NCBI GenBank assembly: GCA_029547225.1
Contig: JAKPPS010000024.1
Coordinates: 893-64,892 of the forward strand
Source: a bacterium
GTDB taxonomy: Bacteria > Patescibacteriota > Dojkabacteria > SC72 > WJKH01
Length of the DNA stretch: 64,000 nt
Reading direction: 5' to 3'
Both the position numbers and the translations under genes were made by a program. The notes below the pieces were generated by a model that was given only the letters and a program-made list of their open reading frames with translations, was not told where the DNA came from and made no database searches. How positions within the stretch are numbered: position 1 is the stretch's first letter; every line of letters starts with the position of its first letter. Of the stretch, positions 1,189-42,515 are shown one piece after another.

Positions 1189-1883
1189 TAAATGTTATTT
1201 AAAAGATGATTTATTATGTCATAGGAATTCTTTGCTACAACTGGTAATAGACTTGTAAAATTCACTTTTGCAGAATTATCAGCTTTGTCTGAGATAGTTC
1301 TCACTATAAGGAATGGAGTATTATTAATTGTACATACTTGTCCTACAGAAGCACCTTCCATCTCGATAATATCGCCTTTTAACTTTATAAAATTGTCATT
1401 ATGTTTTTTAAAGTTTTTATCTGTAATGAACATGTCACCAGTTAAAACGGTACCTTTTTTGATGGTATCTTTGTTTTGTGTCTTCAATGCTAATTCTACG
1501 AGGTTTTTATCTGATTCAAAATAACGGTAAGTTGTATATGGAATGGATCCAATTTCGAAACCAAGCTCAGTTACATCTAAATCGTATTGGACACATTTTT
1601 CTGCTATGACAATATCACCTATATTTATGTTGGGATTAATTGAACCTGCAACACCTGTAAATATTACAATATCAGGGGAAAAATGATCAATTAAATGTTG
1701 TGTTATCATCGCCGAAAAGACCTTTCCCACACCTGTTTTCGTCAATACAATCTGTATGTCTTTATGTTTCTTTGTGAAATAAGTTGTATGTCCAATACTC
1801 GTTTTATCGGTAATATCAAGACGAGATTTAATTTCCTCAATCTCTTCATTCAAAGCACCAATTATTCCAATTGTTTTTTTCAT
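1188..1883 (-). CDS. mtnN: 5'-methylthioadenosine/S-adenosylhomocysteine nucleosidase
   Basis: IGIIGALNEEIE, TKTGVGKV, FTGVAGS, EMEGASVGQVC and VRTISDKAD align along the whole length with the Pfs/MtnN family as I recall it. Confidence 0.85.
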   Translation of the reverse strand: MKKTIGIIGALNEEIEEIKSRLDITDKTSIGHTTYFTKKHKDIQIVLTKTGVGKVFSAMITQHLIDHFSPDIVIFTGVAGSINPNINIGDIVIAEKCVQYDLDVTELGFEIGSIPYTTYRYFESDKNLVELALKTQNKDTIKKGTVLTGDMFITDKNFKKHNDNFIKLKGDIIEMEGASVGQVCTINNTPFLIVRTISDKADNSAKVNFTSLLPVVAKNSYDIINHLLNNI

Positions 1884-6135: not shown

Positions 6136-7299
6136 ATGTTAATCACTCCAACAGTTGATCCGGTAGCTAAAATTAAAGTAGTAGGTGTAGGTGGCGCAGG
6201 TGGCAACACGATAAATAAACTTGTCACAGAATTTGGTATTTCTGGTGTTGATCTTTTAGCCTTTAATACGGATGCTCAAGTCCTGAAGGCTTCTCAAGCT
6301 CATGTTACCCTACAATTAGGTAGTGAATTAACTCGAGGTCTTGGTGCTGGTGGTGATCATCTTTTAGGCGCTCAAGCTGCCGAGGAGAGTTTAGATGAAA
6401 TCCATGAGCATCTTGCCGGTTCTGATATGGTGTTTATCACAGCAGGTATGGGTGGTGGTACTGGAACAGGTGCTGCGCCAGTAGTTGCTGGTGTAGCGAA
6501 AAATCTTGGAGCATTGACAATTGCAGTTGTGACAAAACCATTCAATTTCGAAGGAAAGAAAAGAATGCAGGTAGCGGAAGAAGGCATTGAAGCTTTGAGA
6601 GATAAAGTTGATACACTTATTGTTGTTCCTAACCAAAGATTACTTGATCTTATCGATGAACCAATTTCATTTCTTGACGCAATGAAAAAAGTTGATAGTG
6701 TCTTGGCGGAAGGTGTTAAGAGTATAGCAACTTTAGTTACTCAAGCAGGATTTATTAATGTTGATTTTGCTGATGTAAAAACAATAATGACAAATGCGGG
6801 TACTGCTCTTATGGGTCTTGGTCGAGCCAAGGGTGAGAATAGAGCTGAAGAAGCTGCTCGTATAGCTACAAATAATCCTTTGCTTGATCTTTCAATCGAA
6901 GGTGCTACTGGAGTGCTATTTAGCATTACAGGTGGAGCAGACTTGTCTATGAAAGAGATTAATACAGCTGCAGAAATGATTGAAAACGCAGTAGATCCAA
7001 ATGCAAATATTATCTTTGGTGCTTCTATTGATGAATCAATGAATGATGAGGTATCAATTACTATTATTGCGACTGGTTTTGATTCTTCAAAGCAGGTTTT
7101 GACAAACAAAGCTCGGATGCAAAAACAGGTTGATACAAAACTTACAGGCAATGTTAATCCAGCTCAAACAACTAGCAATGATTTCGTAGACAGGTTTACG
7201 GTTACGGATGATACTCCGGCAGCATCAACCGCTTCAACTTCCTTACAGGACGATGAGGACGAGTTAGAAGTTCCGGCTTTCCTACGCAGAAAGAATTAA
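6136..7299 (+). CDS. ftsZ: cell division GTPase FtsZ
   Basis: GVGGAGGN, the tubulin signature GGGTGTGAAPV, NTDAQ, and the C-terminal FtsA-binding peptide LEVPAFLRRK. Confidence 0.97.
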   Translation: MLITPTVDPVAKIKVVGVGGAGGNTINKLVTEFGISGVDLLAFNTDAQVLKASQAHVTLQLGSELTRGLGAGGDHLLGAQAAEESLDEIHEHLAGSDMVFITAGMGGGTGTGAAPVVAGVAKNLGALTIAVVTKPFNFEGKKRMQVAEEGIEALRDKVDTLIVVPNQRLLDLIDEPISFLDAMKKVDSVLAEGVKSIATLVTQAGFINVDFADVKTIMTNAGTALMGLGRAKGENRAEEAARIATNNPLLDLSIEGATGVLFSITGGADLSMKEINTAAEMIENAVDPNANIIFGASIDESMNDEVSITIIATGFDSSKQVLTNKARMQKQVDTKLTGNVNPAQTTSNDFVDRFTVTDDTPAASTASTSLQDDEDELEVPAFLRRKN

Positions 7300-13954: not shown

Positions 13955-14209
13955 TTTTTTGTATCCATGCGCTTTCTTATAAGCGATATTGTACCATTGC
14001 AATAAAATCCGTCACTGTGTAATCATCTTATTCACGCGTTCTTGAAATAATCGGTTAATCGATGAATATCAATTTTTCTATAGCCATTATTGAAAACTCC
14101 AAAAGTGATTGTGGTAATTTCTCAGATAAATGCACGGTTTGTAATGGTGATGGATAATTTTGAAAAAATACGCATGGTTATAAAAATTATTAAGTTAAAA
14201 AGTTAAAAG

Positions 14210-17921: not shown

Positions 17922-18038
17922 TGCCGAGGACAGGACTTGAACCTGCAACCCCGCTGACTATACTCAATCGATTATTAAGTACAAACAGCGGGGACATGCT
18001 CCTAAGGCATGCGTGTCTGCCAGTTTCACCACCTCGGC
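17922..18038 (-). tRNA. tRNA-Leu (anticodon UAG) with an extremely long variable arm (117 nt in total)
   Basis: Acceptor GCCGAGG/CCTCGGC, D arm GTG-AAACTGGCAGA-CAC, anticodon stem CATGC/GCATG with loop CTTAGGA, T arm GCAGG-TTCAAGT-CCTGT, discriminator A. The variable region is about 48 nt: CCCCGCTG...CAGCGGGG enclosing a further 11-bp AT-rich helix. Confidence 0.85.
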
Positions 18039-21117: not shown

Positions 21118-21282
21118 GGTATGCCACCAACCTTATTGCGTTCCAATAATCTTATTCCATGACTACCCGAGCATTTTTTGAAGATACACCGCTATCACGA
21201 AGCCATACATCAGTTTTTTTTGAAAAACAACCCATGGATAGTGATGGGGAGCGGTCGTCAATGCTATTTGCTCGGATACATT
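21118..21282 (-). repeat. copy A of a conserved four-box structured element (candidate ncRNA or MITE-like repeat)
   Basis: Shares ordered boxes with 39957..40123 and 42465..42515. On the plus strand here they read GGTATGCCACCAACC, CCATGACTACCC, CATGGATAGTGATGG and ATTTGCTCGGATACAT. The strand is inferred from G-U pairing. Confidence 0.6.
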
Positions 21283-27127: not shown

Positions 27128-27252
27128 CTTTCTTTTCTTCTAGGACAATGCGCTTCTTAATTATGCCATTCGTGTGTCAATATATCCGAGTATATTTGCG
27201 ATCTTTTGTATAATCAATTGCATGCTCGTGCAATCTAATATATATTATCTCT

Positions 27253-39296: not shown

Positions 39297-39932
39297 ATGA
39301 TAGAGCAAATAATAAATTTTCTTGTTTCATTAATTCAGACGGTCGGTTATCCAGGAGTTGCTCTAGCTATGGCGTTAGAAAGTTTTTTTGCGCCAATACC
39401 TAGCGAGTTGATAATGCCGTTTGCAGGATTTGTTGCATCGCAGGGTAATATGAATATTTATCTAGTTTGCTTAATTGGAGGTCTTTCAGGTTTTATCGGC
39501 ACTCTACCATTTTTCTACTTAGGACATGTGGGCAATAAGGAATTTATATCGAAGTTAGTAGTTAAATACGGAAAATATTTATTTATAAGGCAGGCTGATG
39601 TAGATAAGGCATATTTTCTTTTTGAAAAGAGAGGGAAAATCATTGTCTTTTTTGCCCGATTAATCCCAATAGTACGATCAATTATATCTATACCAGCAGG
39701 TATGGCTAAAATGAATTTTGGCATTTTCGCAATATATTCTATAGCAGGTTCATTATTATGGAGTTCGATTCTTGGAGTTGCAGGTTATTATTTAGGCTCA
39801 AATTGGGTATTGATTAGTGAAATTATTTCAAAATACGAAAAAATTATCTTAGTAATTATAATTTTGTGTATTGTGATCTTTGTTGTGTATCAGATTTATA
39901 GATTCCGAAAGGAAAAGATATCTAGCAAATAA
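39297..39932 (+). CDS. DedA-family membrane protein
   Basis: GYPGVALAMALESFFAPIPSELIMPFAG and RLIPIVRSIISIPAG motifs. Confidence 0.85.
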   Translation: MIEQIINFLVSLIQTVGYPGVALAMALESFFAPIPSELIMPFAGFVASQGNMNIYLVCLIGGLSGFIGTLPFFYLGHVGNKEFISKLVVKYGKYLFIRQADVDKAYFLFEKRGKIIVFFARLIPIVRSIISIPAGMAKMNFGIFAIYSIAGSLLWSSILGVAGYYLGSNWVLISEIISKYEKIILVIIILCIVIFVVYQIYRFRKEKISSK

Positions 39933-39956
39933 CAATATTTATCAGTTATGTTTTCT

Positions 39957-40123
39957 ATGTATCCGAGCAAATGTCGCTCGCGACCTCTATCCATCACCAT
40001 CCATGAGCATATTTTCAAGAAGAGCTCAAATATGGAAGATGTGTAAACGGTGATTTTGAAAATCAACGATTGGGTAGTCATGGTACGAGCTAATTAAGTT
40101 GGTAAAACGGTAGGTGGCATACT
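39957..40123 (+). repeat. copy B (full length) of the conserved four-box structured element
   Basis: ATGTATCCGAGCAAAT (39957), CCATCACCATCCATG (39991), GGGTAGTCATGG (40072) and GGTAGGTGGCATAC (40109). It fills the convergent dedA/gpmI intergenic region. Confidence 0.6.
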
Positions 40124-40142
40124 ATAAATAAAACAAATATTA

Positions 40143-41681
40143 TTAGAATAATGCTTGTCCTGTCATAACATCCGGAGCACTAAATCCAGCAAGCTTAAGT
40201 ATCGTTGGAGCGATGTCGCAAAGTGAGCCGTATTTTAGCGTCTGTATGTTAAGCTTATCTCCACAGATTAAAAAAGGAACATCATTTTGAGAGTGCTCTG
40301 TGTCCATTTCGCCAGTATTAAGATTTAGTAATCCCTCTGCGTTGCCGTGATCCGAAGTAATGAGTGTAACCCCTCCTCGTGCTGTAAAATTTGCGACTAG
40401 TTTATTTACACAATAATCTACCGTATTTATTGATTTTATCGTAGCTTCAAGATTTCCTGTGTGAGCAACCATATCACCATTAGCAAAATTTACTGCTATG
40501 AATTTATAATAATCGTTTTGAATTCGGTCTATGATGGCTTCAGTAATCGCTGTAGCACTCATCTCAGGCTTCATATCGTATGTCGGTACATTGGGAGATG
40601 GTATTTCTATGCGATCTTCTCCTTGGTGGATAATCGATAGACCTCCATTTAAAAAATAAGTAACATGAGGAAATTTTTCTGATTCGGCAATCCTTAGTTG
40701 ACGAAAACCATAGTCGGAAATTACTCTGCCGATTGGTAGAGAGATATATTCTTTAGGGAATAACACATTTTGCGGTAAATTCTTTTGGTATTCCACCATA
40801 GAAATAAAAAGAAGATTATTAATTTGTTTTCGTGGAAAACCATTAAACTCTGGATCAACAAAAGCTTTTGTAATTTGTATTGCGCGATCAGGCCTGAAAT
40901 TAAGAAATATGAATGCATCGTTATCTTTAATACCAGAGAAACCAGATTTATCGATTACGGCAGGTTCGAAATACTCATCAGTAATATTGTTATTATACTG
41001 ACTATCAATGTATTGAATGTAATCGTTATTGTGCGAGCCTTGAGCATTTACAAGTAAATCATAATATTTAGAAGTTCTGTCCCAATTCTCATTTCTATCC
41101 ATTGCGTAGGCACGTCCACAGATTGTAGCAATCGTGATGTTCGGAGAATTTGCAATTTTGCTCTCCAAAAGATTGATGTAGTTCAAAAAAGATTTAGGAG
41201 ATACATCTCGCCCATCAGATATCGCATGAATATAAACTTTTTGCTGAATGTTATTTCTAACGATTACATCGATTGTTGCCATTAAATGATTAATATGAGA
41301 ATGTACTGCACCATCACTTAAACATATCGCGATATGAAGTGCGCTGTTGGTATCCCGAATATGTTCAAAAGAGCTAAGAAGTGTTGCATTTTGGAAATAT
41401 TCTCCTTTATTAATTGCCTTATTGATTCTAGGAAGATTTTGATAAATTACCTTTCCAGCTCCGATATTCATGTGTCCAACCTCACTATTGCCATTTGTAT
41501 TAGCAGGTAATCCAACAGCCTCACTTGAAGCCTTAAGATAAGTGTGCGGGGATGAATTCCATAGGCGGATTAGATTAGATGGGCGAGCCATAGCTATAGC
41601 ATTTCCTTGAGATTTTGGCGCAACACCAAAGCCATCCATGATTATTAACATGATCGGTCTTTGCATTACTTGATTAAGCAT
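40143..41681 (-). CDS. gpmI: 2,3-bisphosphoglycerate-independent phosphoglycerate mutase
   Basis: LIIMDGFG, NSEVGHMNIGAG, RPDRA and TSDHGNAE motifs; 512 aa. Confidence 0.93.
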   Translation of the reverse strand: MLNQVMQRPIMLIIMDGFGVAPKSQGNAIAMARPSNLIRLWNSSPHTYLKASSEAVGLPANTNGNSEVGHMNIGAGKVIYQNLPRINKAINKGEYFQNATLLSSFEHIRDTNSALHIAICLSDGAVHSHINHLMATIDVIVRNNIQQKVYIHAISDGRDVSPKSFLNYINLLESKIANSPNITIATICGRAYAMDRNENWDRTSKYYDLLVNAQGSHNNDYIQYIDSQYNNNITDEYFEPAVIDKSGFSGIKDNDAFIFLNFRPDRAIQITKAFVDPEFNGFPRKQINNLLFISMVEYQKNLPQNVLFPKEYISLPIGRVISDYGFRQLRIAESEKFPHVTYFLNGGLSIIHQGEDRIEIPSPNVPTYDMKPEMSATAITEAIIDRIQNDYYKFIAVNFANGDMVAHTGNLEATIKSINTVDYCVNKLVANFTARGGVTLITSDHGNAEGLLNLNTGEMDTEHSQNDVPFLICGDKLNIQTLKYGSLCDIAPTILKLAGFSAPDVMTGQALF

Positions 41682-42328: not shown

Positions 42329-42402
42329 GCGGGAGTAGTTCAATTGGTTAGAATAACTCTCTTCCAAAGAGTAGGTTGCGGGTTCGAGACCCGTCTCCCG
42401 CT
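42329..42402 (+). tRNA. tRNA-Gly (anticodon UCC)
   Basis: Acceptor GCGGGAG/CTCCCGC, anticodon stem ACTCT/AGAGT with loop CTTCCAA, T arm GCGGG-TTCGAGA-CCCGT. Confidence 0.92.
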
Positions 42403-42464
42403 TATTCTTCATTATGTAATAATATATTTCTGCCGTGTAAAAGATTGTAATATGCTCAGTGCAT

Positions 42465-42515
42465 GGGTAGTCATGGATATTAATTTTTGGAACGCAATTA
42501 GGTTGGTGGCATACC
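42465..42515 (+). repeat. copy C (3' module only) of the conserved structured element
   Basis: GGGTAGTCATGG, 24 nt, then GGTTGGTGGCATACC. 44 of 51 positions are identical to the reverse complement of 21118..21168 by my hand alignment. Confidence 0.55.

Follow-up and report, generated by a model that had tools for sequence, protein, structure and literature searches.

What fills the convergent gap between a dedA-family gene and gpmI in a 64,000-nucleotide stretch of DNA from a Dojkabacteria-like bacterium (hereafter the window), and does it serve its neighbours, act as a gene of its own or simply occupy the site? The sequence in question, copy B, is 166 bases long and was first noticed as one copy of a four-box element, for which the initial annotation proposed a stand-alone RNA, a 3' untranslated region (3'-UTR) element or a mobile repeat. 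The analysis shows an intergenic element that is modular, non-coding and multi-copy, is restricted to one lineage and is polymorphic for presence or absence. We interpret copy B, with moderate confidence, as a single insertion of a small interspersed repeat that is non-autonomous, built of modules and limited to a narrow lineage of Candidate Phyla Radiation (CPR) bacteria. Empty orthologous sites in related genomes lend direct support to the mobile-repeat option, and the other two stay as rivals of lower probability.

Five copies lie on the 68-kb contig that includes the window, read here as DAOODH010000009.1 of the metagenome-assembled genome (MAG) GCA_035424305.1, which amounts to about one copy per 14 kb:

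13958 to 14186, minus strand: copy D, diverged and type-2-like, between the L27 and SpoU-methylase genes (nhmmer, 37 bits, type-2 5' module)
21118 to 21281, minus strand: copy A, type-1 element between tRNA-Thr and a gene of 370 amino acids (aa) (160 bits on the type-1 profile)
39957 to 40122, plus strand: copy B, full-length type-1 element made of 5' module, centre and 3' module (profile match)
42434 to 42515, plus strand: copy C, solo 3' module 32 nt after tRNA-Gly (60.9 bits)
160 to 241 of locus L128, minus strand: fifth copy, a 3' module (56 bits) about 3.2 kb past the window end on the same contig, beginning 2 nt after the stop of a methyltransferase gene

Empty orthologous sites and distribution

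Sites B and C were compared with the closest relative found (L122, gpmI 81% identical) and with L123 (57%), both syntenic with the window at 38-52 kb, and sites A and D with L130 and L131 (GatB 68% and 63% identical, respectively). At site B, the convergent gap between dedA and gpmI measures 210 nt in the window and 25 nt in L122, and in L123 the two genes overlap by 11 nt. The spacer between tRNA-Gly and the next gene is without copy C in both L122 and L123, and its flanks align right to the ends of the 82-nt module. Copy A is missing from L130 and L131, where 40-53 nt separate tRNA-Thr from the orthologue of the 370-aa gene, and the gap equivalent to site D in L131 is 29 nt long and lacks copy D. 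All comparable orthologous sites of the four window copies are empty in related genomes. Reciprocally, L122 has a copy of its own, exact in its boxes, at a distance of 19 nt from a helix-turn-helix (HTH) gene's stop, and in the window this gene is separated from its neighbour by 2 nt. A copy in L009/L031 is 91% identical to copy A over 195 nt, and its flanks have neither nucleotide nor protein similarity to the window. Across a narrow lineage, then, many sites have gained or lost the element.

The exact search pattern, GGGTAGTCATGG-N20-40-GGTGGCATAC (22 boxed bases), identified 37 metagenome loci from anaerobic digesters and activated sludge, with at most 4 loci per contig. The same pattern had no match in 185,579 species genomes (one per species), and viral contigs gave no match with two patterns. 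Nor did the 3'-module profile match L123 or the loci taken from the nearest named genomes, four in number, of which three carry the label Dojkabacteria and one Saccharibacteria. The host itself is placed by gpmI, whose product shares 53-57% identity with proteins labelled Candidatus Dojkabacteria or WS6. Its genes in the window are the housekeeping set of a small genome, encoding DNA polymerase III alpha, FtsZ/FtsA/FtsW, ParA/ParB and GatB/GatC together with IleRS, ProRS, UvrB/UvrC and ribosomal proteins. Confinement of the repeat to a narrow lineage of uncultured CPR bacteria, with Candidatus Dojkabacteria as nearest named relatives, is the best explanation of these distributions. We found no published description of the repeat in the literature, and the data are best explained by a previously undescribed, small, interspersed repeat in a Dojkabacteria-like CPR lineage.

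CPR (Patescibacteria) genomes, of about 1 Mb, are streamlined and thought to be poor in mobile DNA. If the density of about one copy per 14 kb holds, the repeat would reach some 60-70 copies per genome, a sizeable undescribed component. It could provide a handle on the persistence of non-autonomous elements in reduced genomes, on typing at strain level and assembly breaks in metagenomes from digesters and sludge, and on a mobilisation enzyme of CPR bacteria that recognises hairpins and may be new. It also calls for caution in annotation: individual copies should not be labelled as a small RNA gene or a small open reading frame (ORF).

Copy B and the modules of the family

Copy B matches the type-1 profile with 142 bits (E 1.5e-41, model positions 1-164), and its 3' 82 nt match the 3'-module profile with 39 bits (nhmmer, E 1e-9), both profiles having been built with copy B among their members. 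With 39 bits against 55-75 for typical copies on the 3'-module profile, it is the most diverged full copy. Its parts and neighbours are as follows:

39957 to 39972, plus strand: box 1 (ATGTATCCGAGCAAAT), 16/16 identical to copy A
39991 to 40005, plus strand: box 2 (CCATCACCATCCATG), matching copy A at 14/15 positions and forming an imperfect inverted repeat with box 3
40041 to 40122, plus strand: 82-nt 3' module (YGTR...GGGTAGTCATGG, 10 nt, short hairpin, GGTNGGTGGCATAC; nhmmer)
40048 to 40068, plus strand: small A/U-rich hairpin (GATTTT/AAAATC) just 5' of box 3, in the minimum free energy (MFE) fold
40072 to 40083, plus strand: box 3 (GGGTAGTCATGG), identical in copies A, B and C and in all metagenome copies, the latter ascertained by a pattern holding box 3
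40109 to 40122, plus strand: box 4 (GGTAGGTGGCATAC), 13/14 identical to copy A
39297 to 39932, plus strand: upstream neighbour, a gene for a DedA/VTT-domain membrane protein of 211 aa (ORF; Pfam PF09335)
40143 to 41681, minus strand: downstream convergent neighbour gpmI (ORF; PF01676 and PF06415)
39896 to 40081, minus strand: fortuitous ORF of 61 aa whose start is an ATG inside box 3 (ORF list)

Pattern searches recover the four boxes at the positions first assigned to them (39957, 39991, 40072 and 40109), with 0, 1, 0 and 1 mismatches to copy A, in which box 1 is matched at 21266-21281(-). The ORF calls and Pfam likewise agree that copy B fills the gap from the dedA stop (39932) to the gpmI stop (40143), starting 24 nt after the one and ending 20 nt before the other. 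The nearest tRNA lies 2.2 kb away at 42329, in keeping with the earlier remark that none is nearby, and the remark that a 5' leader is excluded holds for this copy. The central region requires a different account. It had been described as unrelated in sequence between copies A and B; in an alignment of five type-1 copies, however, A and B match end to end, at 111/167 positions overall and, with 2 gaps, at 36/66 in the centre, a score reached by 0/2000 shuffles. The last 30 nt or so of this supposed centre are part of the conserved 3' module, which begins at 40041. Single boxes with at most 3 mismatches are weakly enriched within the window, and the four-box element is real and above chance. 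A further box-1-like match at 27180-27195 (+) (ATATATCCGAGTATAT, 13/16), 52 nt after tRNA-Lys, is not detected by the type-1 profile and is probably a chance match or a badly decayed remnant.

The constant part of the family is the near-invariant 82-nt 3' module (about 35 distinct copies aligned), in outline CGTG…GGGTAGTCATGG…GGTGGCATACC and common to all members. It opens with YGTR-(A)AGGT..., followed by a small variable hairpin and box 3 (GGGTAGTCATGG), and continues with a 10-nt A/T-rich segment, a short hairpin (usually ATTGGAACGCAAT) and box 4 (TGGTTGGTGGCATACC), just 3' of which W-TAAA is usual. This module occurs alone (copy C, L005, L023, L035 and others), behind a type-1 5' part or behind a type-2 5' part. 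The type-1 5' part, composed of box 1, a small hairpin, CGACC and box 2, is carried by A, B, L009 and L004. The type-2 5' part (TATATAACCATGCGCTGATTTTCAAG-ATTATCCGTCACCATTACAATCC...ATTACCCGATTCAC) is present in about 12 copies, and is also found solo, without a recognisable downstream 3' module, at L011 5945-6023 (-) and L037 7353-7422 (-), the latter about 110 nt upstream of a gene start. The family is hence built of separable modules that occur in several combinations and whose end modules are complementary, boxes 1 and 2 to box 3.

Some members depart from these arrangements. Copy D has a recognisable 5' module and a non-canonical 3' part; its two ends are complementary to each other (CCATGCG at the 5' end, CGCATGG at the 3' end), as are GTGACGGAT and ATCCATCAC. 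At the start of its contig, L122 holds a type-2-5'-module-like fragment (1-60), followed by about 470 nt of AT-rich, ORF-free DNA and a canonical 3' module (536-614), which may represent one element with a long insert or two separate fragments. A partial 3' module at L031 6155-6208 (-) has an intact box 3 and ends in GCATGGTGTC in place of GGTGGCATAC, so that box 4 variants exist beyond the exact-pattern set. Finally, L003 4693-4742 and L019 7786-7835 are orthologous copies with near-identical flanks and 96% identity in the 5' part of the element, whereas 7/10 positions differ in the 10-nt segment between box 3 and TTGG (GATGATATTC versus AACACTATTG). This difference suggests patchy sequence exchange between copies or fast change of the 10-nt segment.

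Folding, coding and roles for the neighbours

The initial annotation had envisioned two helices, one joining box 2 with box 3 and the other box 1 with box 4, and on comparison of the folds of A and B the model fails in part. The box 2:box 3 helix is present in the MFE folds of copy B and L004. In copy A, box 1 pairs with box 3 instead, and the missing box 2:box 3 helix can be forced at a cost of 12 kcal/mol. No MFE or consensus fold contains the box 1:box 4 helix. The full two-helix model lies 0.7 kcal/mol above the MFE in B, 2.9 in L004, 12.6 in A and 11-19.5 in type-2 copies. No fold is common to A and B, or to types 1 and 2. These competing folds arise because boxes 1, 2 and 4 all hold a TAYCC-type motif complementary to GGGTAG of box 3, as with TATCC in box 1, which complements GGGTA. 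The proposed A/U-rich hairpin of the centre is indeed in the copy B MFE fold at 40048-40068, and in other copies this position is taken by a small hairpin with another sequence.

Consensus folds (RNAalifold, 5 type-1 and 10 type-2 copies) keep the box 2:box 3 pairing in both types. In type 1, CGACC and not box 1 pairs with box 4, box 1 is left unpaired, and the covariation term is +1.2 with double changes in 4 pairs; in type 2, the term is +0.52 with double changes in 1 pair. The paired box 2/box 3 positions are invariant in both. Within the 3' module, box 4 can pair locally with box 3 (GGTAGTCAT with GTGGC-A-TACC), and this hairpin, a bulged 9-bp stem, is present in the MFE fold of about 23/36 isolated 3' modules, B included. 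The module is nonetheless no more stable than shuffled sequence (mean z -0.22 over 36 copies; -0.06 for the reverse strand), and the full copies score -0.30 (B) and -2.19 (A). The hairpin after the 10-nt segment occurs in differing registers among variants (35 3' halves aligned), because of which column-wise pair counts are meaningless. The complementary extensions of the box 1:box 3 helix, GAGCA/TGCTC in copy A and GTCAC/GTGAT in type 2, and the G-T pairs by which one strand folds better than the other are hints that fit a folded single strand, DNA or RNA, without defining one structure.

One rival reading is a family of stand-alone genes for small structured RNAs, each with its own promoter, an invariant-box scaffold and variable segments giving paralogue specificity. 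Several features suit this possibility: the boxes are near-invariant and the spacers variable, type-2 copies open with a conserved, -10-box-like TATATAAC, folding energies are consistently lower on the strand favoured by G-U pairs, small hairpins that differ in sequence recur at two set positions, one preceding box 3 and one following the 10-nt segment, the box 1:box 3 extension stays complementary though different in copy A and type 2, and the orthologous pair described above has 7/10 changes in the 10-nt segment with flanks 96% identical. Against it stand the shuffled-level folding z-scores, covariation terms that are zero or worse with invariant paired box positions, and the lack of a fold common to A and B or to types 1 and 2; with so few compensatory changes and only background stability, the element does not behave as a generic structured RNA gene. 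It also does not belong to a described family of Rfam 15: at the gathering threshold tRNAs alone were found in the window, a search of region 39700-40400 at E up to 10 returned two chance-level matches of 13-19 bits, and three typical type-2 or solo loci gave nothing relevant. There is no conserved -35 element, promoter-like matches at copy B are at background level, and the copy B scan found no terminator. Finally, copies are gained and lost between close relatives and the modules are found separately. We therefore regard an RNA gene family as rather unlikely. A more specific version, in which multi-copy CPR small RNAs would combine scaffold boxes 3 and 4, alternatively pairing with 1 and 2, with fast-changing guide segments (the 10 nt after box 3) and an unknown protein partner, is quite unlikely; were it true, copy gain and loss would be turnover of a guide repertoire and not selfish transposition.

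Could the element instead be kept for its neighbours, as a cis-acting element at transcription-unit ends that stabilises mRNA 3' ends, terminates or attenuates transcription, or insulates convergent genes? All copies are intergenic, with mixed orientation relative to their neighbours: 8 are co-directional and 8 anti-directional, while 3 occupy convergent gaps and 5 divergent ones. Among the 19 copies followed by a convergent gene, 10 have their 3' end 9-30 nt away from that gene's stop (20 nt for copy B), and copy B fills its whole convergent gap. Some REP/BIME and pneumococcal SPRITE repeats have been proposed to act at transcription-unit ends. SPRITE is enriched near the 3' ends of convergent genes, and folded repeats affect co-transcribed genes (Croucher et al., PMC3049150). 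However, copy B has no hairpin-plus-T-run on either strand, and on the strand that folds it is followed by the A-rich tract. Copies upstream of genes or in divergent gaps are about equally numerous, and the orthologous genes of relatives manage without the element, with 25-nt gaps or overlaps. A cis-acting role is unlikely on this balance, and it is compatible with a mobile origin, not an alternative to it.

No recurrent neighbour protein family emerged from an all-against-all BLAST of 388 flanking ORFs, which gave only orthologues from different samples and a single translational GTPase cluster (IF-2, BipA). The neighbours checked are housekeeping genes (IF-2, BipA, UvrD, DnaX, ribosomal protein L25 and similar). 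A linkage to tRNA genes was also considered, since copies A and C follow tRNAs, and was rejected: few of 36 loci adjoin a tRNA, in all relative orientations, hence no excess over what is expected for intergenic sites. The five contig copies switch orientation between 21 and 40 kb; the GC skew of the contig follows gene orientation and shows neither a replication origin nor a terminus.

A coding explanation can be given almost no credence. The 61-aa ORF on the minus strand (39896-40081) does exist as first listed, is initiated by ATG and starts within the invariant box 3. Yet the ORF from the same ATG in 34 other copies stops after 7-58 codons with unrelated residues, the 27-30-nt differences in spacing between box 3 and box 4 break the frames of the other strand, all codon positions in the boxes are invariant and the 61-aa product has no Pfam match. 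The earlier judgement that coding is unlikely is thus borne out. A 16-aa frame running through boxes 3 and 4 is broken by the 27-30-nt spacing variants as well. Likenesses to a sigma-54 promoter, a dif/Xer arm, a k-turn or a G-quadruplex were set aside, none being backed by conserved partner motifs.

Proposed mobilisation and known repeat families

How might a non-coding interspersed repeat of this kind move? No terminal inverted repeat (TIR) or target-site duplication (TSD) is visible at the aligned boundaries of sites B and C, where the spacers are diverged and AT-rich and a TSD of 2-3 nt could escape notice. The ends of type-1 copies have only GTAT(C)C...G(GC)ATAC in common, and the solo 3' module runs from CGTG to CATACC, without an inverted match. 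Because of this lack of TIR and TSD, the mutual complementarity of the boxes (TATCC, CTATCC and CATACC versus GGGTAG) and the G-T pairs favouring one strand, the form recognised would most likely be a hairpin in single-stranded DNA. The element would be mobilised in trans, by an enzyme whose gene lies elsewhere in the genome, and its hairpins would be substrates of the sort that HUH/Y1 enzymes (TnpA of IS200/IS605, or RAYT for REP) use. At its site copy B probably has no dedicated function; if transcribed through, it would add a folded 3' tail to dedA or gpmI transcripts.

The same motifs allow a reading in which folding is irrelevant and the element is a cluster of double-stranded DNA binding sites (TAYCC/GGGTAG) for one protein, such as a nucleoid-associated or Xer-type protein. 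Within the element the short motif does occur three times in direct and once in inverted orientation, conservation of the boxes concerns sequence and not pairing, and a gene for an Xer-type tyrosine recombinase lies between two copies in L031. Nearly all bacteria have an Xer-type recombinase gene. The G-T pairs of the helices, however, make sense for one folded strand alone, no candidate protein was identified, and the possible likeness of box 4 to a dif arm comes with no conserved second arm in the flanks. We consider this reading very improbable. The recombinase gene in question (L031 3522-4412) sits between the partial module at 6155-6208 and a canonical copy at 1765-1847. This inverted module pair was examined as a possible insertion sequence (IS) and discarded, as it encloses genes for AIM24, DivIC, the Xer-type recombinase and a HAD hydrolase, that is, ordinary chromosome.

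For the preferred interpretation, an inserted mobile repeat, several observations weigh on the other side. Neither a transposase, nor RAYT, nor any other mobilising gene was seen in the 64-kb window and about 280 kb of flanks; in the same DNA, no parent IS with matching ends was found and no RAYT gene flanked by the repeat was seen. The 5' flanks of the folding strand are not conserved, and the weak C-W-TAAA flank lies 3' of the element on the best-folding strand, not 5' as in IS200/IS605. The insertion boundaries come from two alignments of diverged AT-rich spacers, in which a very short TSD may be missed, and at each single site the relatives may have lost the element instead of its having been gained here. 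The near-invariance of boxes 3 and 4 could also reflect selection for function in place. In part it arises because the metagenome search required both boxes, and variants with altered boxes exist (copy D; L031 6155-6208).

Among described repeats, BOX (Streptococcus pneumoniae, S. suis) and the enterobacterial BIMEs come close: they too are short, intergenic and made of separable modules variously combined, with complementary end modules, predicted folding if transcribed, and dozens of copies in a few related species. The boxA, boxB and boxC modules of BOX occur in varied combinations, and the mobilising enzyme of BOX is unknown (PMC3049150). By contrast, the repeat described here has no sequence similarity to BOX and no tandemly iterated middle module, and its box 1:box 4 pairing is weak and not predicted, whereas BOX and RUP have terminal inverted repeats that pair as a duplex. 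Its host, a CPR bacterium with a very small AT-rich genome, is also unlike the hosts of BOX and BIMEs. The resemblances to BOX and SPRITE are best taken as ones of architecture and behaviour, an architectural class and not a homology family.

Like REP and REPIN sequences, the repeat is intergenic, shows no visible TIR or TSD, and persists and turns over within a lineage; the imperfect palindromes of REPs, which occur as singlets and inverted doublets, may have a counterpart in its box 3:box 4 stem. GTAG in box 3 resembles the GT(A/G)G head of REP, and RAYT and IS200/IS605-like Y1 enzymes act on REP/BIME hairpin substrates (PMC2817692). REPs, however, are G+C-rich units of 20-40 nt with GTAG outside the stem, whereas the unit here is AT-rich, 82 nt long and has GTAG inside the predicted stem. 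In comparison with MITEs, or miniature inverted-repeat transposable elements, the repeat is likewise small (82-230 nt), AT-rich, non-coding, multi-copy, intergenic and presence/absence polymorphic without a transposase of its own, but it lacks the defining TIR, and no TSD was seen at the two aligned insertion sites. What the copy number (5 on a 68-kb contig and 37 metagenome loci), the four empty sites and the reciprocal case do establish is an interspersed repeat.

Elements of the PATE type, derived from IS200/IS605, lack TIR and TSD and have subterminal hairpins and a left end that abuts a conserved target of 4-5 nt. Hairpins without a visible TIR or TSD would fit such a derivation, whereas the weakly conserved flank is on the side opposite to that of the IS608 model. 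Integron attC sites (R''-L''...L'-R'), which act as folded single-stranded DNA, are the closest formal match to the four-box picture of copy B, with two complementary pairs around a variable centre. Yet the repeat has no RYYYAAC/GTTRRRY cores, no cassette array of uniform orientation and no intI nearby, and, unlike attC, its centre is homologous between copies, which are scattered among housekeeping genes in both orientations.

Two observations on RNA genes stand apart from the repeat. The window encodes a tRNA-Leu at 17922-18038 (-), with anticodon loop CUUAGGA and anticodon UAG, that scores 49.5 bits with the Rfam tRNA model and is not called by ARAGORN; its variable arm, of about 46 nt, is unusually long and comprises an 8-bp stem (CCCCGCUG/CAGCGGGG) and a 29-nt loop. 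In L026, at 1308-1736 (-), ARAGORN predicts a transfer-messenger RNA (tmRNA) of 429 nt, long for its kind, with a tag peptide of 32 residues.

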